NCBI GenBank assembly: GCA_040385105.1
Contig: JAZKHY010000031.1
Coordinates: forward strand, 1-64,000
Direction of reading: 5' to 3'
Length of the DNA: 64,000 nt
From: Pseudomonadota bacterium
Lineage (GTDB): Bacteria > Pseudomonadota > Gammaproteobacteria > Burkholderiales > Burkholderiaceae_C
The notes under the pieces are model-generated. The model saw only the letters and a program-made list of their open reading frames with translations, was not told where the DNA came from and did not search any database. The first letter of the stretch is position 1. Each line of letters opens with the position of its first letter. Below, one piece after another: positions 305 through 7,779 of the stretch. The position numbers and the translations under genes are program-made.

Positions 305-1543
305 TCAACCTTTCACACACACCACCTGCTTGAGCGTGTGGACCACGTCCACCAGGTCGCGCTGCGCGTTCATCACCGCGTCAATGTCCTTGTACGCGGC
401 GGGCGTTTCGTCGATGACGTCCTTGTCCTTGCGGCACTCGACGCCTTCGGTGGCAGCCCTGTGGTCCGCCCGCGTGAAGTGGCGCTTGGCTTCGCCGCGG
501 CTCATCACGCGGCCGGCGCCGTGCGAGCAGCTGTCAAAGCTTTCCGCATTCCCCTTGCCGCGCACGATGAAGCTGCGCGCGCCCATGCTGCCGGGGATGA
601 TCCCGAGCTGCCCGGTTTTCGCGCTCACCGCGCCCTTGCGGGTGACGTAGACGTCCTCGCCGAAGTGATGCTCCTTCTGCACATAGTTGTGGTGGCAGTT
701 CACCGCCTCGATATGGCTCTGGAAGCTCTTGTGGATCACCGTCTTCGCGGCTTCGATCACACGCTTCATCATCACCTCGCGGTTGATCGCCGCGAACTTC
801 TGTGCCCAGCCCACCGCGCGGACGTAGTCGCCGAAGTAGCGGCTGCCTTCCTCGAAGTAGGCCAGGTCGCGGTCCGGCAGGTTGGCCTGGTGGCGCATCG
901 CATCCTGCTTGGCCAGCTCGATGAACATCGTGCCGATGAAGTTGCCCACGCCACGCGAACCCGAGTGCAGCATGAACCAGACAAAGCCCGCTTCGTCCAG
1001 GCAGACCTCGATGAAGTGGTTGCCCGTGCCCAGCGTGCCCAGGTGCTGGATGTGATTGGTCTTCGCGATCTTGGGGTAGTCGCGGCACAGTTCGGTGAAC
1101 TCCGGCTCGAGTTGCGCCCAGGCAGTGTTGACCGAGCCCGGCAGCTTGTGCCACGCGCCCGGGTCGCGCGAGCCCGGCGAGCGGCCGTGCGGCACGGCGC
1201 GCTCGATGGCCGAGCGCAGCGGCGCCAGGTTGTCCGGCAGGTCTTCGGCCTTGAGCGTGGTCTTGCAGGCCATCATGCCGCAGCCGATGTCCACGCCCAC
1301 TGCCGCAGGAATGATCGCCCTGAGCGTGGGAATGACCGAACCGACGGTTGCGCCGATGCCGAAGTGCACGTCCGGCATGACGGCGATGTGCGGGTACACG
1401 ACGGGCAGGCGCGCCGCATTGGTCACCTGGCGCCTGGCCCCGTCATCGACGGGGACGCCGCGCGTCCACATCTTCACCGGCACGCCGCCGGGGGTGGCTT
1501 CCTCGATGAAGCCGGATTCGATTTCTTCAGTCATGGTGTCCAT
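305..1543 (-). CDS. rtcB: RNA-splicing ligase RtcB (3'-phosphate/5'-hydroxyl RNA ligase)
   Basis: 412 aa ORF with RtcB hallmarks ([29 protein letters not shown]); no rtcA or rtcR in the window. Confidence 0.93.
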
Positions 1544-1600: not shown

Positions 1601-2737
1601 TCAACGGATCTTCACCAACCCGTTGAGCACCTGGTCCAGACCTCCAAACACGGAGATCTTGTCGATGCGCTCGGCCACGCGCTCCAGCGTCTCCAGCTCC
1701 TTCAGGCGCAGGGCGATGGGGTTGTCCTCCATCACCCTGGCCGTGTTGAGCAGCGAGCGGGTCGCTGCCGTTTCCTCGCGGCGGCGGATCACGTTGGCTT
1801 CAGCCGACTTGCCGGCTTCGACCACTTTCGCGAGGATGGTCTTCATCTCGCCGGGTAGCACGATATCCTTCACGCCCACACCGTCCAGCTCCAGGCCCCA
1901 GGCCGCAAGCCGGCTGCTTGCGCACGCGGTCACGACCTCGTCGATCACCGACTTGTTCTCCAGCAGCTCGTCCAGCGTGCGGGTACCCACCGCCGCGCGC
2001 AGGCCCAGCTGCAGCTCGCGGTACAGGTGCTCCGCGGGTTTCTGCAGCAGGGTGAAGGCCTTCAGCACGTCGGTGTAGCGCCAGGTCGCGGCCAGGTTCA
2101 GCCTCAGGCTGACCTTGTCGCGGGTCAGGATTTCCTGGCCCGTGACTTCCACGGCCTGCAAACGCAGGTCCACCAGCTCGACCGCCACGTTGCGGCTGAA
2201 CTTCCAGAACGCGTACGAGCCGGGCTCCAGCAGACGCGACACCTTGCCGTCCACCGCCAGCACGCCGGTCGCGTGCTCGGGAACCTGAATCTGCAGCACG
2301 CCGGCCAGCCCGGTCACGCCGCGCTGGCGCAGCTGGGTCTGCATCAGGCGCTGCGCCATCGCGGCAGGGAGCTCGGCGGACGCAGCCAGGTCGATCACCT
2401 CGACCTTCACGTCCACCAGGCCCTTCCAGTACAGGCGGCGGGTGCCGGGCGCCAGCACTTCCACCAGCACGCCGTTCTCGCTGCGCAGGCCGGCCTGGGT
2501 CTCGCCCAGCTCGACGCGCAGGAATTCAGCGGCCACCACCTCGGGCTCCATGGCCATCAGGTAGTCGGCCAGGCCGTGCATGAAGGCGGGCTGCTCCAGC
2601 GCGAAGGTCTCCACGCGGAGCTTGTCCGTCATGGAGAACAGCTTGTGTTCGCCGGGCGGCAGGATGCGATCGAAATCGCCGTTGCGCAGCAGGATGCCGC
2701 GTTCGTTCTTCTTCACAGTGACACGCTTGTATTCCAT
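1601..2737 (-). CDS. SPFH/band-7 (slipin family) protein, first gene of an operon with rtcB
   Basis: ORF 1601..2848. The internal start MEYKRVTVKK at 2735-2737 is preceded by a GGAGAA RBS. Coiled-coil rich C-terminal half. 57 nt gap to rtcB on the same strand. Confidence 0.75.
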   Translation of the reverse strand: MEYKRVTVKKNERGILLRNGDFDRILPPGEHKLFSMTDKLRVETFALEQPAFMHGLADYLMAMEPEVVAAEFLRVELGETQAGLRSENGVLVEVLAPGTRRLYWKGLVDVKVEVIDLAASAELPAAMAQRLMQTQLRQRGVTGLAGVLQIQVPEHATGVLAVDGKVSRLLEPGSYAFWKFSRNVAVELVDLRLQAVEVTGQEILTRDKVSLRLNLAATWRYTDVLKAFTLLQKPAEHLYRELQLGLRAAVGTRTLDELLENKSVIDEVVTACASSRLAAWGLELDGVGVKDIVLPGEMKTILAKVVEAGKSAEANVIRRREETAATRSLLNTARVMEDNPIALRLKELETLERVAERIDKISVFGGLDQVLNGLVKIR

Positions 2738-3018
2738 GGTGTTCTCCTTGTGGGTTGCGTGTTTCAAAAATAGGGCGCCGCGGGTTGCGGCCATGCCGGC
2801 GGACGCTGAAGGCCAGGGGCCGGGCTCCACGGCGCGCCTTGGCGGCAAGGTGCCGCTTCAAGCTTGACGTGAGCGCGGACCCGGCGCATCCGGCGCGCGA
2901 GCCGGCATCGCCGGCAGGCTTGGGGCTCGCCCTTCATGGGCGCCGCGCAAGGCGGCGCTTCCTTCAGGTTTGCCCCGCGCCTGCGCGCGGCGCTTGGTCT
3001 TTCGACCGTTTGCGATTT

Positions 3019-3087
3019 GGAAACGGGAGTCGAACCCGTGACAGGTCTTTTATGCAAAGACTGCTCTACCACTGAGCTATCCATTTC
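3019..3087 (-). ncRNA. Degenerate tRNA-like element 1 (tRNA-Met-like body with an aberrant anticodon loop; possible pseudo-tRNA or tRNA mimic)
   Basis: Minus-strand sequence GAAATGGATAGCTCAGTGGTAGAGCA-GTCTT-TGCATAA-AAGAC-CTGTC-ACGGGTTCGACTCCCGT-TTCC. D-arm and T-arm are canonical. The anticodon loop carries CAT but has G at position 33. The 5' and 3' ends cannot form a standard 7-bp acceptor stem together with the T-stem. No CCA. Confidence 0.4.
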
Positions 3088-3090
3088 TAA

Positions 3091-3147
3091 TGGTGGGCGG
3101 CCCGGGAGTCGAACCCGGCTCGTCGCGGAGGTATCCCCACGCCGCCC
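3091..3147 (-). ncRNA. 57-nt armless tRNA-like minihelix element 2 (perfect acceptor stem, T-arm, discriminator A, encoded CCA; no D or anticodon arm)
   Basis: Minus strand reads GGGCGGC-GTGGGGATACCTCCGCGACGAG-CCGGGTTCGACTCCCGG-GCCGCCC-A-CCA. The acceptor stem pairs perfectly over 7 bp and the T-arm is canonical. It lies 3 nt upstream of element 1 in the transcription direction. Confidence 0.45.
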
Positions 3148-3296
3148 TGGCATCCACCGCTTCCCGGCAGCGCGGCATGCAACACGTCCACGGACCGAGG
3201 CCCGGACGGATGCACCGGCGGGGCGGGCGTGAGCCCGAACCCCAGCCTGTCAGCGCTTGGCCGTTTGGCGGAAGATTTCTGTGCGGCTGAACCTGT

Positions 3297-3860
3297 TCAG
3301 TTCAGCCGCGATCCTTTGGGCAGGCGCGAAGCCAGCCACTCATGCACGTCGGCCCGGATGTTCCGGCCTTCCAGCAGGAAGTCCTCGAAGCGGCTGGGCA
3401 CATACGGCAGGTACGCCAGTGCCATGCCCGCTTCTTCGGGCGTGCGGTCGGCCTTGCGGCCATTGCACAGCGCGCACGCCGCGACCAGGTTCATCCAGCT
3501 CCACGCGCCGCCGCGCGACAGCGGGAAGATGTGCTCGCACTGCAGGTCGCGCTCGGCAATCACCTGCGCGCAGTACGCGCAGGTGAACCGGTCGCGGCGC
3601 AGCAGTTTGCGCTTGCTGAAGCCTGGCGTGACGTCGAACAGGTTGTGCCTGGCCGCGCCGTTGAGTGCAATGATGGGGTGCACCGGCAGCAGCGACTGCC
3701 TATTGCTCGAGACGTTCCAGCCGCCGCGCAGCACGGCCAGCGGACTGGCGCCGTCTTCCCACGCGACCGAACCGGTCGCGTAGTGCAAGGCCGCCTGCTC
3801 CAGGCTGATCCAGGCCTGCGGCGTGCCCTGGATATCCAGCTGAAGTACATGCGCTTGCAT
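3297..3860 (-). CDS. HNH endonuclease (McrA-like, about 187 aa) embedded between tRNA genes
   Basis: Motifs CAYCAQ...CEHIFPLSRGG...NLVAACALCN. RBS GGAGAA; the start lies 26 nt downstream of the 3' end of tRNA-Lys. Confidence 0.85.
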   Translation of the reverse strand: MQAHVLQLDIQGTPQAWISLEQAALHYATGSVAWEDGASPLAVLRGGWNVSSNRQSLLPVHPIIALNGAARHNLFDVTPGFSKRKLLRRDRFTCAYCAQVIAERDLQCEHIFPLSRGGAWSWMNLVAACALCNGRKADRTPEEAGMALAYLPYVPSRFEDFLLEGRNIRADVHEWLASRLPKGSRLN

Positions 3861-3886: not shown

Positions 3887-3963
3887 TGGTGTGGGCTCAG
3901 GGATTCGAACCCTGTACCCCCTGGTTAAAAGCCAGGTGCTCTGGCCGAATGAGCTAAGCCCGC
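3887..3963 (-). tRNA. tRNA-Lys (anticodon TTT)
   Basis: GCGGGCT-TA-GCTC-ATTCGGCCA-GAGC-A-CCTGG-CTTTTAA-CCAGG-GGGTA-CAGGGTTCGAATCCCTG-AGCCCAC-A-CCA. One C2·A71 acceptor mismatch. Confidence 0.75.
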
Positions 3964-4173
3964 ATGAAACTCACCACTCGCCGACTTCGCGCACGCGCTG
4001 GTCCAGATCGAGTCGATCCAGATCAATGCGCCTGCGCGCGCCCTGGCGGTGGACACGGGTACCCACGCGTGCGATACCGCGAACGAGAGCCTGCACCACG
4101 CGGTTGCGCGGCTTGGCTGCTGGCACTGCAAACATTTGCTTGCGCATGATGGCTCCTTTGAAAGTGTTGAAAA

Positions 4174-4249
4174 TGGCGCCCCGTGAGGGAATCGAACCCT
4201 CGGCTTCCTCCTGGACAGGGAGGCACTCTGGCCGCTGAGTTAACGGAAC
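4174..4249 (-). tRNA. tRNA-Asp (anticodon GTC)
   Basis: Cloverleaf with anticodon loop CTGTCCA and T-arm GAGGGTTCGATTCCCTC. Acceptor GTTCCGT/ACGGGGC has two G·U wobbles. Discriminator G, encoded CCA. Confidence 0.75.
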
Positions 4250-4258
4250 GGAAAATGC

Positions 4259-4337
4259 TGGTTGCGCAGGCCGGATTCGAACCGGCGATCTCAGGCGTAT
4301 GAAACCTGCGGGGACAACCAGACTCCCCTACGGCGCT
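4259..4337 (-). tRNA. tRNA-Met (anticodon CAT); possibly initiator-like, or an Ile2/lysidine tRNA
   Basis: Anticodon loop TTCATAC. The 3' end GGCCTGCGCAACCA resembles the fMet 3' end. Unpaired A1·A72, one C6·U67 mismatch, 11-nt D-loop. Confidence 0.6.
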
Positions 4338-4342
4338 ATTTC

Positions 4343-4420
4343 TGGCATCGTGTGCGGGATTCGAACCCGCGATCTCCTGATTGAAAGTCAGGTGTCCTTG
4401 GCCATCTAGACGAACACGAC
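4343..4420 (-). tRNA. tRNA-Glu (anticodon TTC)
   Basis: GTCGTGT-TC-GTC-TAGATGGCCAA-GGAC-A-CCTGA-CTTTCAA-TCAGG-AGATC-GCGGGTTCGAATCCCGC-ACACGAT-G-CCA. Confidence 0.85.
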
Positions 4421-4426
4421 AAAAGC

Positions 4427-4503
4427 TGGTGCCCCAGGGGAGACTCGAACTCCCAGAATCCTGCTTCTGAGGCAGGCATGTCTGCCGGTTCCATCACCGG
4501 GGC
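4427..4503 (-). tRNA. Non-canonical class-I tRNA with anticodon CAG (Leu anticodon, but no long variable arm)
   Basis: GCCCCGG-TG-ATG-GAACCGGCAGA-CAT-G-CCTGC-CTCAGAA-GCAGG-ATTCT-GGGAGTTCGAGTCTCCC-CTGGGGC-A-CCA. 3-bp D-stem, 5-nt variable region, discriminator A73. Confidence 0.55.
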
Positions 4504-5160: not shown

Positions 5161-5523
5161 ATGAACGTTTCCATCACCACGGTCCGAAGGCAGAACCTGC
5201 TGGTTCTCTACCAGGAGTTCGTTCAACAGGCGGTGGCCAAAGGTGGGACGCCGCGCGGGCTCGACCAGGACTTTGCCGCGCACCTGGAGATATCACCCAG
5301 CATGCTCAGCCAGATCAAGTCGGCGCGGCCGATCGGCGACAAGCTGGCGAGGCAGATAGAGACCCATTGCAACAAGGCGGCGGGCTGGCTGGACCAGGAA
5401 GGGCTGCCTTCAGAGCGTGGGCCTGATGCCGCTGAAGAACGCTTCATCGCGCTGGCCCGCGCGGCGTGGCGGGGCGCCAACACCAGGCGGAAACGGGAGT
5501 TGACCACGGCACTGCGGGCTTGA
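5161..5523 (+). CDS. XRE/Cro-like helix-turn-helix transcriptional regulator
   Basis: 120 aa with an HTH-like segment (ISPSMLSQIKSARPIGDKLARQIE). Confidence 0.55.
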   Translation: MNVSITTVRRQNLLVLYQEFVQQAVAKGGTPRGLDQDFAAHLEISPSMLSQIKSARPIGDKLARQIETHCNKAAGWLDQEGLPSERGPDAAEERFIALARAAWRGANTRRKRELTTALRA

Positions 5524-5546: not shown

Positions 5547-6266
5547 TCATTCGCCGTCTTGCATGAGCGTGTTCCAGCGCGCATGTCCCAGCCCGTTGCG
5601 CAGGGCCACCGCGCCTTTGGGGCTGAACTGCAGCGCGCGTGAGCCGTTACGGCGTACCAGCCAGCCGCTGTCCAGGCATTGGCTGCAGATCAGTGCGCCC
5701 AGGCGGCCCGCGACATGATGGCGGCGCTCGCTCCAGTCCAGGCAGGGGCGGCAGTGCGGGCGCTTGCCTCCGGCGCCTGACAGCGCGGCGCTATCCACAC
5801 CCAGGGCCTTCAGCACGGCGCCGGCGCGGTCTGTCAAATGGCCTGCCTCGCCATCAAATGCAATGGCGCCGTGGTCCAGCAGGTGCTGGGTAATGGCCAC
5901 ACCCAGCCGCCCGGCAATGTGGTCGTAGCAGGTGCGCGCCATGCGCATGGCCGCGTCGCGCGGGCCGGTCACGGTGCGCTGCACCGATGCCTGTTGCGCG
6001 GCCAGTTGGGTAATGCCTTCCAGCACACGTGCCACATCGGATGACGCGAGCCGGTGATAGCGGTGGCGGCCCTGGCGCTCCATGTGCAGCAGGCCGGCCT
6101 CTATCAGCATCGCCAGGTGGCGGCTGGCCGTGGCCGCGCTGATATTGCCGGCGGCAGCCAGCTCATTGGCCGTCAGCGCGCGGCCGTCCATCAGCGCGAG
6201 CAGCATGGCGGTGCGCGCCGGCTCGCCGACAAGGGACGCGATGTGGGCAATCTGGTTGGTGTTCAT
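5547..6266 (-). CDS. ArsR-family HTH transcriptional regulator with a C-terminal extension
   Basis: ORF 5547..6404; probable start MNTNQIAHIASLVGEPARTAMLLALMDG. ArsR-type HTH (ANELAAAGNISAATASRHLAMLIEAGLL). Confidence 0.7.
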   Translation of the reverse strand: MNTNQIAHIASLVGEPARTAMLLALMDGRALTANELAAAGNISAATASRHLAMLIEAGLLHMERQGRHRYHRLASSDVARVLEGITQLAAQQASVQRTVTGPRDAAMRMARTCYDHIAGRLGVAITQHLLDHGAIAFDGEAGHLTDRAGAVLKALGVDSAALSGAGGKRPHCRPCLDWSERRHHVAGRLGALICSQCLDSGWLVRRNGSRALQFSPKGAVALRNGLGHARWNTLMQDGE

Positions 6267-6435
6267 GGCGATGACGGTACAGCCGGTGGCGGGGCAAATG
6301 CTTCGTTCCGCAGCAAAGCATTCTGGCACTCCATCTGCAAGACCGCGTTGAGGCAGCGGGGTTTCGCGTACGGTACAGGACCAGGAGCTAGAATATCCAT
6401 TCAATTATCTATTCACATATCTATTCAAAGCTGCG

Positions 6436-7779
6436 ATGCGTCCTGACCTGGATACCCTGCGTTTACGCCTGGCCGGCGGGCCCCAGCCCGCGCGGGCGCT
6501 GACGGATGCGCTCGGGCTCAGCCAACCCACGCTGTCGCGGCGGCTGGCCGGCCTGGGCAGTGCGGTGGTGCGCATCGGGGCAGCGCGATCCATTCAGTAC
6601 GCGTTGCGCGATACGCTGCGGGGGCTGCCCGATATCGCGGTTTACCGCGTGGACGCCTCCGGCCAGCTGAGCCGGTTGGGCCTGCTGGTTCCGGTGCGGC
6701 CCGACGGCTTCGTGATGCACACCAGCGCGGGCGACACCCTCTACAGTCCCGGCCTGCCCTGGTGGCTGCTGGACATGCGGCCTCAGGGCTACCTGGGACG
6801 GGCCTATGTGGCGCGCCACGGCGCGGCGCTGGGCTTACCGGCGCGCCTGGGTGACTGGTCCGACACTGACGCCCTGCGCGCATTGCTGGTCCACGGGCAC
6901 GATCCCGTGGGCAACCTGGTGCTGGGCGATGGGGCGCGCGACCAGTTCATTGCCACCCCCGTGGCTGAACCAGTGGCTCCCGGTGACAAGCCCGCCACTT
7001 ACATGCGCCTGGCCCGCGAGGCCGCGCAAGGCGAGGCGCCCGGCTCCTCCGCTGGTGGCGAGCAACCCAAATTCACCGCTTGGTCCGTCACGGCCGATGG
7101 CCCGCGCCACGTGCTCGTGAAGTTCAGTGAGGCCGAACCCGGTCCCGTGCCACAGCGTTGGCGCGACTTGCTGCTGGCCGAGCACATCGCACTGCAGACG
7201 CTGGCCGAAGGCGGCGTGCCCGCCGCCCGCACCGCCTTGCTGGACGCAGGTGGCCAGCGCTTTCTGGAAGTAGTGCGATTTGACCGTACGGGGCCGCTTG
7301 GCCGCCGCGGCATCGTGTCGCTGGCAGCCATGGATGCCGAGTTCGTCGGCGCAGGCCCCGTGCCCTGGCCCGTGGTGGTGCAGCGCCTGGCAGACGCCGG
7401 CCACGTGCAGGCCGAGGCGGTGCAGGGCGCCGCGCTGCTGTGGGCTTTTGGCGCGCTGATCGGCAACACCGACATGCATGCGGGCAACCTGTCGTTTGTG
7501 ACGGAGCAGGGCCGCCCCTGGGGGCTGGCGCCGGCTTACGACATGTCATCCATGGCGTTCGCGCCACGCTCAGGCGGCAGCCTGCCCGATGCATTGGGCG
7601 CGGCCAGCTTGCACCCCGCCATCCCTCACGACATCTGGCGGCAGGCCGCCGCGCTGGCCGGTGGCTTCCTGGTACGGGCTCGGGACGAGCGCGGCTTCAG
7701 CCGGCGCTTTGCGTCATGCCTGGCCGCGTTGGCGCAGCACCAGCAGGCCGCTCGCGAGGGGATTGCGAGGCTTGGCTAG
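6436..7779 (+). CDS. HipA-like serine/threonine kinase toxin homolog with an N-terminal HTH (YjjJ/HipH-like)
   Basis: 447 aa. N-terminal HTH (LTDALGLSQPTLSRRLAGLG) and a HipA C-terminal kinase core (GEQPKFT ... IGNTDMHAGNLSF). Confidence 0.75.
   Translation: MRPDLDTLRLRLAGGPQPARALTDALGLSQPTLSRRLAGLGSAVVRIGAARSIQYALRDTLRGLPDIAVYRVDASGQLSRLGLLVPVRPDGFVMHTSAGDTLYSPGLPWWLLDMRPQGYLGRAYVARHGAALGLPARLGDWSDTDALRALLVHGHDPVGNLVLGDGARDQFIATPVAEPVAPGDKPATYMRLAREAAQGEAPGSSAGGEQPKFTAWSVTADGPRHVLVKFSEAEPGPVPQRWRDLLLAEHIALQTLAEGGVPAARTALLDAGGQRFLEVVRFDRTGPLGRRGIVSLAAMDAEFVGAGPVPWPVVVQRLADAGHVQAEAVQGAALLWAFGALIGNTDMHAGNLSFVTEQGRPWGLAPAYDMSSMAFAPRSGGSLPDALGAASLHPAIPHDIWRQAAALAGGFLVRARDERGFSRRFASCLAALAQHQQAAREGIARLG

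Follow-up and report, generated by a model that had tools for sequence, protein, structure and literature searches.

Organization of the slipin-rtcB locus

We analyzed a stretch of 64,000 nucleotides (the window) in which two tRNA-shaped sequences, named here Element 1 and Element 2, lie upstream of a slipin gene. As the original prediction had stated, both are present on the strand of slipin and rtcB, which is the minus strand. The genes and predicted RNA features of the locus are the following:

305..1543, minus strand: rtcB, RNA ligase (Pfam RtcB, 1.6e-127)
1601..2746, minus strand: slipin, SPFH/Band-7 protein (Pfam Band_7, 2.2e-26)
2777..2991, minus strand: predicted 3' domain, multi-helix, closed by long-range pairing (alignment A5)
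2996..3007, minus strand: GNRA hairpin GGUC-GAAA-GACC with invariant stem (loop counts)
3018..3083, minus strand: Element 1, tRNA body with short acceptor (Rfam, covariation)
3084..3090, minus strand: spacer UUAGAAA leading from Element 2 to Element 1 (sequence)
3091..3147, minus strand: Element 2, tRNA-like minihelix (sequence, fold, covariation)
3152..3276, minus strand: predicted 5' domain, closed multi-helix fold (alignment A4)
3297..3860, minus strand: gene for an HNH endonuclease, immediately 5' of the RNA (Pfam HNH_5, 2.6e-14)
3887..4503, minus strand: upstream array of five tRNAs (Leu-CAG, Glu-UUC, Met-CAU, Asp-GUC, Lys-UUU)

rtcB is located directly downstream of slipin, each of the five array tRNAs has an encoded CCA, and a 10-bp hairpin (3309-3283) spans the stop codon of the HNH gene. 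The slipin protein, read by eye, has no obvious membrane segment, and its AlphaFold2 model was of low quality (mean pLDDT of 57). A HEARO/IscB omega-RNA was considered for the neighborhood of the HNH gene and discarded: there was no Rfam HEARO match, the HNH protein (187 aa) matched the IscB model through its HNH domain alone, with 41.7 bits against a cutoff of 175, and the RNA persists at loci that lack the HNH gene.

Element 2 extends over 57 nt, from its 5' end at 3147 to its 3' end at 3091, and agrees with its earlier description in length, acceptor, T arm and terminal A plus CCA. Its 5' half (GGGCGGC / GUGGGG-AUAC-CUCCGC / GACGAG) contributes one strand of a 7-bp acceptor, a 6-bp hairpin with an AUAC cap and a 6-nt linker, and its 3' half (CCGGG-UUCGACU-CCCGG / GCCGCCC / A-CCA) provides the T arm, the other acceptor strand, the discriminator A and the encoded CCA; the D arm and the anticodon loop are absent. 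The sequence folded into the expected shape with −33.3 kcal/mol (z = −2.1 against shuffles). Taken alone, folding energies only modestly beat those of shuffled sequences (z of about −2); the case beyond chance is a comparative one.

In Element 1, canonical D (GCUC/GAGC) and T arms enclose a variable loop CUGUC and an "anticodon" arm with a 5-bp stem and the loop UGCAUAA, in which the predicted CAT and the G at position 33 can be read. The Rfam tRNA model matched it with 35.9 bits (gathering score of 29) at model positions 5-66 only, so a normal acceptor stem is absent, as had been claimed. Its ends do pair, in a 4-bp acceptor formed by UGGA (3083-3080) and UCCA (3021-3018) with one bulged U. 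Because of this pairing, the gap between the elements is the 7-nt spacer UUAGAAA and not the 3 nt given before. From the 3' end of Element 1 to the slipin ATG at 2746 we measured 272 nt, close to the "about 280 nt" of the original prediction. ARAGORN did not call a tRNA at Element 1 of the window; it did so at the homologs in most loci.

Conservation and covariation of the tandem elements

The pair was found at the same place and on the same strand upstream of slipin in 80 Burkholderiales loci, as expected if it is conserved beside slipin and rtcB. By motif search, Element 1 was recognized in about 75 and Element 2 in about 71 of these 80 related loci. In most homologs the spacer between the elements is a single C (...NCCA-C-UGGAUAGCUC). 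A slipin homolog is present in all 80 loci, rtcB in 66 (mostly 0-6 kb downstream of slipin, upstream in a few) and the HNH gene in 57; the homologous arrays hold 0-20 tRNAs per locus, and the pair also occurs at loci without any array. The same arrangement was met in Burkholderia, Photobacterium, E. coli and one Firmicute, whose slipins, also present at these distant loci, are only 34-66% identical. These distant slipins were reached by tblastn against plasmid records, the protein homolog search having yielded relatives of more than 80% identity; a Nostoc plasmid match was set aside as a mere fragment of a slipin gene. Photobacterium and Burkholderia also carry the tandem pair, and this tandem arrangement of mimics may be new.

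All stems of Element 1 and the acceptor and T stems of Element 2 covary across homologs. In the Element 1 cloverleaf, 94% of the cells were paired, compared to 81% in shuffles and 36-47% when partners were slid, and double-change cells numbered 150 versus 36 in shuffles. Its acceptor never reaches 7 bp, the fifth pair failing in 43 of 72 sequences, and the full D/T elbow and core are retained. A covariance model built for Element 1 did not separate it cleanly from genuine tRNAs, as array tRNAs scored up to 69 bits and Burkholderia Element 1 scored 61. Element 2 was compared through a structure-anchored parse with strand swapping as the control for bias: acceptor pairing averaged 6.37 of 7, compared to 5.40 +/- 0.075 with 3' strands swapped between species, and at each of positions 3-7 at least four Watson-Crick pair types were observed. 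A 12-bp acceptor/T stack is retained, and the usual form of the element carries a ...UGGAUU... linker. CCA follows Element 2 in 63 of 68 distinct homologs; it is common only in loci of the Comamonadaceae type, with AUU found in Burkholderia and ACA in Photobacterium.

The label "degenerate" that the elements had received is thus misleading, since the short acceptor of Element 1 and the D-arm-less form of Element 2 are conserved traits of a family. Decayed tRNA pseudogenes at the end of the array, or functionless remnants of an integration site, would match the position downstream of a tRNA array, the damaged look of the elements and the tRNA-like score of Element 1. However, the same unusual architecture is shared by 80 species and by distant genera, each variable stem shows compensatory changes, the pair is present where there is no array, and a canonical tRNA occupied the position of Element 1 or Element 2 in none of the 84 loci compared. 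This alternative, which the original prediction had itself raised, is extremely improbable.

Functional decoding tRNAs were likewise rejected, in agreement with what had been proposed: Element 1 has an acceptor of 4 bp, Element 2 has neither D nor anticodon arm, and no U33 loop or anticodon is conserved, the window having G33 and several lineages tetraloops. Comparison of the homologous sequences therefore confirmed the pair as real, conserved, non-decoding tRNA mimics. An optional additional hairpin was observed 3' of Element 1 in some homologs.

The loop of Element 1 showed 47 different sequences among 72, and the "anticodon" read by ARAGORN in the homologs differs in almost every species. 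Such rapid change would fit an arms race, in which tRNA-directed ribotoxins (anticodon nucleases or acceptor-end nucleases) would be competitively inhibited by the mimics or would attack them as sacrificial targets, with spare tRNAs and the ligase produced alongside. [quoted passage not shown]" Nevertheless, Acidovorax, Delftia, Burkholderia and loci L007, L010 and L013 have a GNRA tetraloop in Element 1, and mimicry of an anticodon loop is excluded for the GNRA or UUCG tetraloops of RtcR-type species and Burkholderia; an anticodon arm is wholly absent from Element 2; the loop variation resembles relaxed constraint, with no target sequence conserved; and the two large flanking domains are left unexplained. 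We consider a decoy function unlikely.

A larger RNA around the pair and its genomic linkage

The alignments indicate that the elements are not free-standing and that they are two modules of one covarying RNA of about 500 nt. Upstream of Element 2, the 5' domain of about 125 nt is closed by an outer stem of AUCUUCCGC with GCGGUGGAU that ends 4 nt 5' of Element 2. Of all parts of the RNA, the block CCGGUG...CAUGCCGC within this domain is conserved most widely, and it is recognizable in Burkholderia, Photobacterium, E. coli and Subdoligranulum. In alignment A4, 28 of the 38 predicted pairs of this domain showed compensatory changes, and pairing reached 94.9%, compared to 83.9% in shuffles and 32-51% with partners slid. 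The GNRA hairpin that follows Element 1 had the loops GAAA (41), GCAA (35), GAGA (3) and GCGA (1) over the 80 loci, and its stem varied by one compensatory U-A to C-G change only. The 3' domain, of about 215 nt, ends approximately 30 nt 5' of the slipin start codon; in alignment A5, 39 of its 53 predicted pairs showed compensatory changes, and pairing reached 92.7%, compared to 79.7% in shuffles and 36-45% with partners slid. Its outermost 4-bp helix is invariant and is thus only putative.

Together, the flanking domains have 91 predicted pairs, of which 67 show compensatory changes; this amounts to far more predicted structure than a processing site requires. No Rfam family corresponds to the RNA of about 500 nt, and this structured RNA around the pair may be undescribed. 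The motif CUGUAACGGCACC near the ribosome binding site (RBS) was considered as a sigma-54 promoter and dismissed, since neither the spacing nor the −12 GC fits; it instead pairs with GCCG...CAG about 250 nt upstream, a pairing in which the window itself has a compensatory change from CAG/CUG to CGG/CCG. A phage origin was also dismissed, as the conserved block GGTCGMAAGACCA...CGCCGRACG, a pattern from which the window's own copy deviates, had no match in viral contigs.

The tRNA-like modules are lost individually: Element 2 is missing in L053 and L066, Element 1 is missing in L079, only remnants of both are left in L077, and one T arm is left in E. coli. Therefore, they are not an indispensable core of the RNA. 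A reduced version is found in 30% of complete E. coli genomes (about 1,600), where it lies behind a canonical sigma-54 promoter (TGGCACGCTTCTCGCA) and is accompanied by slipin and a nucleotidyltransferase gene, with no rtcB at this locus; strains WAT and C2 are examples of carriers. Elsewhere too, the RNA stays beside slipin where rtcB lies apart or is missing from the locus. Judged from these gene neighborhoods, and because the E. coli locus combines RNA and slipin in the absence of rtcB, the tightest linkage of the RNA is to slipin and not to RtcB. In Acidovorax and Delftia, the gene order is rpoN - rtcR, a divergent TGGCAC-N5-TCGCA promoter, the RNA, slipin, others, rtcB and RlaP. The placement of the RNA behind an RtcR-linked sigma-54 promoter in these genera, as well as the reduced E. 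coli version, may be new. With rtcB in 66 of 80 loci and such promoters in Acidovorax and Delftia, the link to RtcB/RtcR RNA-repair biology made in the original prediction holds.

Lying in every case on the slipin strand, behind the promoter or the preceding genes and before the slipin RBS, the RNA could be a leader that controls slipin-rtcB expression in cis, its tRNA-like modules included. Control of this kind could operate through separation from the tRNA/HNH transcript by RNase P or RNase E, through a protected tRNA-like 5' end of the mRNA, through attenuation, or by sensing a tRNA-related signal. Element 2 does have features of an RNase P substrate, array-type loci place the RNA after a polycistronic tRNA unit that needs processing, and in many homologs the last helix is followed by a U-rich tract; the RNA of the window is closed just 5' of the RBS by a hairpin with a U-run (2791-2777, then GCCCUAUUUU). 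However, this hairpin was rejected as an intrinsic terminator, terminator-like matches being at chance level (2 found, 2.1 expected). Furthermore, we saw neither a conserved alternative pairing nor a helix sequestering the RBS, which the 3' domain leaves accessible, about 110 covarying pairs are excessive for a processing or stability element, and loci of the RtcR type already have dedicated transcriptional control. Regulation in cis is, in our view, possible but rather doubtful.

Proposed role and comparison with known systems

We favor, with a probability of roughly 0.45, the interpretation that the two elements are the tRNA mimics within a structured RNA associated with Band-7 (slipin), one that would serve as a cofactor in repair by slipin and RtcB. 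This RNA would make up the first 500 nt or so of the transcript of slipin(-RlaP)-rtcB; in the window, transcription probably reads through from the unit of tRNA array and HNH gene. For Acidovorax and Delftia, the start would be the RtcR-linked sigma-54 promoter, and the RNA would therefore appear when broken tRNAs accumulate. By analogy with Mycobacterium smegmatis YrlA, which has a 7-bp acceptor, RNase P may cut at G3147, the 5' end of Element 2. The mimics would present tRNA-like surfaces that recruit or gate tRNA-recognizing proteins, the likeliest partners being the operon's own slipin scaffold, RtcB and RlaP, and the RNA would thus be to a repair particle the kind of cofactor that YrlA is to Rsr/Ro60. 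Against the cofactor interpretation, a constant position 5' of one gene is equally expected of a cis-regulatory leader, modules are individually lost, and CCA after Element 2 is common in certain lineages only.

A broader and more tentative proposal concerns the whole, possibly undescribed multi-domain RNA of about 500 nt, which has at least 110 covarying pairs and occurs beside apparently cytosolic slipins of beta- and gammaproteobacteria and Firmicutes: it would supply the RNA subunit of a ribonucleoprotein (RNP) based on slipin that aids tRNA repair by RtcB/RlaP. RtcB operons are widespread in bacteria. If the proposal is true, bacteria would have in the slipin RNP a counterpart of the Ro-Y RNA particles, with an SPFH protein as its scaffold. 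The question is testable in a tractable organism, since about 1,600 complete E. coli genomes have the reduced version.

Several known RNAs share part of this organization. The tRNA-like domain of tmRNA consists of an acceptor and a T arm with CCA, its D loop being reduced to a short GG-containing strand. Element 2 likewise combines acceptor and T arm with CCA and, in its common form, has a ...UGGAUU... linker, but it lacks a tag reading frame and pseudoknots; the G3:U70 alanine identity pair was present in 3 of 68 Element 2 sequences, ARAGORN called no tmRNA and no Rfam tmRNA match was obtained even at E <= 10. The top Rfam match of Element 2 was the mascRNA-menRNA model (RF01684), with 29.2 bits in the window and in L068, under the gathering score of 42.5. 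The two agree in layout, with a T arm, an acceptor of 7 bp and a short hairpin where the D and anticodon arms would be, whereas mascRNA is a eukaryotic processing product of MALAT1; the resemblance is one of shape and not of descent. Additional tRNA genes together with an HNH endonuclease gene and rtcB form the same context in cyanobacterial tRNA arrays, of which one is induced under translational stress in Anabaena. There, however, HNH lies upstream of the array, and here it lies at the array's 3' end; a term search of the paper on these arrays gave 0 occurrences of "tRNA-like" and no mention of slipin.

YrlA is closer. It is a non-coding tRNA mimic with canonical D and T arms and the same invariant GCUC/GAGC D stem, encoded within RtcB operons controlled by RtcR/sigma-54 (rsr-yrlBA-rtcBA; Rfam RF02553). 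RtcR is activated by tRNA halves, and M. smegmatis YrlA is cleaved by RNase P and gains CCA, YrlAs with shorter stems being left uncut. In contrast to both elements, which keep the normal tRNA order, YrlA is circularly permuted (T arm, closed acceptor hairpin, D arm); it is also joined to a Ro60-binding stem and encoded next to rsr, a gene that is not adjacent here. Between HNH and rtcB of the window there is no rsr and no room for one, and ORFs between slipin and rtcB of L074 and L068 had no TROVE match. With the YrlA model (gathering score of 69), the window scored 20.4 bits, L068 28.4 and L083 27; the match was limited to the part from T arm to D arm in the window and L068 and extended over the whole model in L083. 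The Ro60-binding motif GNCGAAN0-1G is matched in the window by GGUCGAAAGACC, but 39 of the 80 hairpins have GCAA, GAGA or GCGA; because about half of the homologs deviate in this way, the conserved feature is the GNRA tetraloop. These results support the view that the elements are analogues of YrlA and not classical Y RNAs, the latter point having been anticipated. The Rfam search proposed for the region was thus positive for tRNA at Element 1, below threshold for YrlA and mascRNA and negative for tmRNA.

[quoted passage not shown] A preprint citing it describes the b7a-tRNA as a predicted ncRNA with strong resemblance to a real tRNA, whose gene neighbors those of a Band-7/SPFH protein and RtcB; it is reported there to swap places with YrlA/Rsr and is proposed to be a functional counterpart of YrlA; according to this 2018 preprint, it was without experimental validation (bioRxiv 10.1101/312249). 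Compared by the description in the citing preprint only, Element 1 fits: it is tRNA-like, passes the tRNA gathering score with a covarying cloverleaf, and lies 272 nt upstream of a Band_7 gene, with the same arrangement in the 80 and the distant loci. rtcB is associated with it in the window, as in 66 of the 80 loci, and is missing from the E. coli locus. With this fit, the core idea was already known as a prediction, and the class is less novel than the original prediction implied. The interpretation given there is partly supported, its specific roles of regulator, decoy or substrate being candidate functions. In the description of the citing preprint a single tRNA-like RNA is mentioned, whereas here a tandem pair with flanking domains is found. 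The locus family thereby offers a precise, covariation-backed model of a b7a-tRNA-type RNA, in which two mimics, complementary in the tRNA features that they keep, lie within a far larger predicted fold.

The two tRNA-like elements and their setting

On the minus strand, the window carries, in 5'-to-3' order, a tRNA array, an HNH endonuclease gene, a non-coding stretch, a slipin gene and rtcB:

4503-4430, minus strand, tRNA Leu-CAG
4420-4346, minus strand, tRNA Glu-UUC
4337-4262, minus strand, tRNA Met-CAU
4249-4177, minus strand, tRNA Asp-GUC
3963-3890, minus strand, tRNA Lys-UUU
3860-3297, minus strand, HNH endonuclease gene
between HNH and slipin, minus strand, non-coding stretch of 550 nt holding both elements
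2746-1601, minus strand, slipin gene (Pfam Band_7)
1543-305, minus strand, rtcB

Element 2 (3147-3091) consists of the segments GGGCGGC / GUGGGG-AUAC-CUCCGC / GACGAG / CCGGG-UUCGACU-CCCGG / GCCGCCC / A-CCA, and its top Rfam match was the mascRNA model, below threshold. In Element 1 (3083-3018) the D and T arms are canonical, the 'anticodon' stem of 5 bp carries the loop UGCAUAA and the acceptor has just 4 bp (UGGA/UCCA); the Rfam tRNA model matched it with 35.9 bits over model positions 5-66 only, and ARAGORN did not call it. Single-sequence folding gave both elements their expected shapes with modest z-scores (about -2) and, together with sequence and Rfam, agreed with the original prediction of two tRNA-shaped elements, except that the spacer, put there at 3 nt, is 7 nt once the true acceptor of Element 1 is used.

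Conservation, covariation and the larger RNA

A slipin-anchored search retrieved 80 loci from different Burkholderiales species (slipin identity 73-85%), most of which carried the element pair at the same distance upstream of slipin with about 70-80% nucleotide identity. By motif search, Element 1 was detected in about 75 of the 80 loci and Element 2 in about 71. Element 2 was missing in L053 (an isolate genome) and L066, Element 1 in L079, and mere remnants of the modules were left in L077.

Among 72 distinct Element 1 sequences, the D stem did not vary, while both sides had changed in up to 35 sequences in the anticodon stem and in 7-17 in the T stem; 94% of cells were paired, versus 81% after column shuffles and 36-47% with partners slid. 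The acceptor remained at 4 bp, the fifth pair failing in 43 of the 72. Element 2 homologs were parsed by structure because MAFFT misaligned them, and showed an acceptor of 6-7 bp with at least four Watson-Crick pair types at positions 3-7 among distinct homologs. The bias from picking the 5' strand by best complementarity was controlled by swapping 3' strands between species, which gave 5.40 +/- 0.075 pairs versus a real mean of 6.37 of 7. Of 68 distinct sequences, 63 have CCA after the acceptor. As a rule, the inner part consists of a short strand containing UGG and a hairpin of 4-5 bp with GCAA, GCGA, GAAA or UUCG as its cap; the window, which together with L001, L002 and L037 makes up a small clade, has a different inner hairpin. 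The anticodon and T stems of Element 1 and the acceptor of Element 2 thus covary across homologs, a canonical tRNA, which the original note had named as a finding that would refute it, occupied either position in none of the homologous loci, and both structures are under selection. That the pair represents pseudogenes is excluded by this covariation and is extremely improbable.

According to ARAGORN, the 'anticodon' of Element 1 homologs varies between nearly all species (Ile, Met, Val, Glu, Thr, Ser, Phe, Leu, Arg, Gln, Cys, Asn, Pro or undetermined). The 72 sequences have 47 loop sequences, and the loop is a GNRA tetraloop in Acidovorax, Delftia, Burkholderia and loci L007/L010/L013. With the 4-bp acceptor of Element 1 and the lack of D arm and anticodon loop in Element 2, these features bear out the original prediction that neither element is able to decode. 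Variable loops would fit a toxin decoy, but the tetraloop lineages do not, and we regard this role as distinctly unlikely.

Everything between the HNH stop codon and the ribosome-binding site of slipin is conserved, and Elements 1 and 2 are modules of a larger structured RNA of about 500 nt, no part of which matched a family in Rfam 15. Its 5' domain (3276-3152) is a closed multi-helix fold whose outer stem stops 4 nt ahead of Element 2, with 28 of 38 predicted pairs showing compensatory changes. Element 1 is followed by an optional extra hairpin in many species, a GGUC-GNRA-GACC hairpin with an invariant stem (3007-2996 in the window) and a 3' domain (2991-2777; 53 predicted pairs, 39 compensatory), whose outermost 4-bp helix is invariant, so that its pairing is unproven. 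Paired cells amounted to 94.9% in the 5' domain versus 83.9% (shuffled) and 32-51% (slid), and to 92.7% in the 3' domain versus 79.7% and 36-45%; as RNAalifold derived the structures from these very alignments and shuffles ignore phylogeny, these controls are generous, yet the margins are still large.

The optional hairpin (e.g. L005 5708-5730, L007 5735-5755), absent in the window, has a 7-nt loop of anticodon-loop shape such as CUGCAAA or CUGAUAA; in L007, where Element 1 has a tetraloop, it carries CUGAUAA, an Element 1 loop in other species. The complete genome of Rhizobacter sp. (CP050901.1) has two RNA-slipin modules (L043 and L044) at distant chromosomal positions with identical leaders.

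Genomic contexts and distant relatives

Most loci resemble the window, with a divergent orf120 (51/80), an array of 0-20 tRNA genes, HNH (57/80), the RNA and slipin; rtcB (66/80) comes next, separated from slipin by inserts of 0 to several kb. The window array (3887-4503, minus) precedes HNH on the same strand, CCA is encoded by all five tRNAs, and two positions in the acceptor of tRNA-Met form non-standard pairs. Extra-tRNA arrays of up to 20 genes also occur in L003, L007, L009, L022, L031 and others. Between tRNA-Asp and tRNA-Lys lies a 59-codon ORF (3970-4146, minus) with a good ribosome-binding site, for which Pfam, NCBIfam and PADLOC gave no match and tblastn no counterpart in other loci. 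The HNH endonuclease (187 aa) gave sub-threshold matches to PtuB, IscB and Cas9 via its HNH domain only, and a perfect 10-bp hairpin (3283-3309, minus) spans its stop codon right before the structured RNA. The orf120 product (120 aa; 5161-5523, plus), encoded at a constant position in those 51 loci and without family match, may regulate the tRNA array by analogy with TrcR in Anabaena. Just beyond the island (5547-7779) are an HTH gene of ArsR/MarR type (minus) and a gene for a HipA-like kinase (plus); a HipA-like match was nearby in just one other locus, L009.

Acidovorax, Delftia and locus L072 are without tRNA array and HNH gene. Upstream of the RNA, Acidovorax and Delftia instead have a second rpoN copy and rtcR in divergent orientation, the latter with a sigma-54 activator domain besides its Pfam RtcR match (1e-82). 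The first conserved block of the RNA comes about 45 nt after a canonical sigma-54 promoter (TGGCAC-N5-TCGCA), and downstream are slipin, uncharacterised genes, rtcB and the gene for the RlaP nucleotidyltransferase. This gene order makes the RNA the 5' part of an operon laid out like RtcR-dependent rtc operons, linked to slipin, RtcR, RtcB and RlaP. RtcR responds to tRNA halves with cyclic phosphate ends. The full-length rpoN adjoining rtcR in L068 (Delftia sp. PS-11, 2106-3677) points to a dedicated or second copy of sigma-54 serving the repair operon. The slipin-rtcB interval of RtcR-type operons (L074 7436-10087; L068 7143-8057) holds two or three conserved ORFs without family match and one with a ClpP-like SDH-type serine protease domain, a pairing with slipin that recalls slipin/NfeD.

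Tblastn against plasmid and chromid records retrieved slipins 34-66% identical. The Burkholderia cenocepacia locus combines a sigma-54 promoter and the 5' block with an Element 2 that has a 7-bp acceptor but no CCA, an Element 1 with a 6-bp acceptor and a GAAA tetraloop, and a GNRA hairpin. In Photobacterium there is a sigma-54-like promoter together with a pair of neighbouring tRNA-like elements, the first a full cloverleaf (7-bp acceptor, 6-nt loop, 54 bits), the second with a 4-bp acceptor AGGA/UCCU, scoring 46 bits over model positions 4-67 and 73.6 bits on the Element 1 model, more than any genuine array tRNA. The versions in E. coli and Subdoligranulum are reduced, with one or two T arms, and all four keep a recognisable form of the block CCGGUGCGC...GCGYAUGCCG, that of E. 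coli being the loosest. Of 5,426 complete E. coli genomes, 1,632 carried the E. coli module (sigma-54 promoter, leader, slipin, nucleotidyltransferase; no rtcB at the locus), for which RefSeq has no RNA annotation. Its reduced RNA (L081 4681-4995; L085 3501-3836) lies behind the canonical promoter TGGCACGCTTCTCGCA, the gene pair is located between yjbD and lysC, and a zeta-toxin family gene adjoins on the opposite strand. An unannotated 240-bp fragment of the Nostoc flagelliforme plasmid pNFSY08 (L086 7001-7240; 80 residues, 72.5% identical to the window slipin C-terminus) is an isolated slipin gene remnant on a cyanobacterial conjugative plasmid.

Proposed role and comparison with known systems

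Our preferred, still tentative reading (probability about 0.45) makes the RNA a cofactor in slipin/RtcB repair whose two modules would display complementary tRNA surfaces. Element 1 would display the tRNA elbow and core and Element 2 a 12-bp acceptor/T stack with CCA, and RNase P would cleave Element 2 at its 5' end, just as it cleaves the M. smegmatis YrlA with its 7-bp acceptor. [quoted passage not shown] A purely cis-acting leader would suit the position equally well, but not the complexity of the fold; it is possible, though rather unlikely.

The 2016 abstract of Burroughs and Aravind reportedly describes SPFH/Band-7 scaffolds with 'a novel tRNA-like molecule' as cognate RNA. Element 1 strongly resembles tRNA, has an adjacent Band-7/SPFH protein and is associated with RtcB, the three features given for b7a-tRNA in that passage of the YrlA-structure preprint (bioRxiv 10.1101/312249), outside which no mention of b7a-tRNA was found in the literature searched. 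As originally held, the elements are not classical Y RNAs: they score below threshold as YrlA, have no rsr next to them and lack a conserved Ro-binding motif. YrlA has a permuted order of parts, whereas Elements 1 and 2 have the normal order; in Acidovorax and Delftia the RNA occupies the place of rsr-yrlBA in Salmonella. The link of tRNA array, HNH and RtcB is already known from the stress-induced cyanobacterial L-arrays, which the window array resembles; the term 'tRNA-like' is absent from the L-array paper. The finding is real and biologically meaningful, and its core is the rediscovery of a predicted class. What may be new is the extended architecture, the tandem pair, the setting with sigma-54 and RtcR and the version in E. 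coli, which together make the role of tRNA-like RNAs in RtcB operons directly testable.
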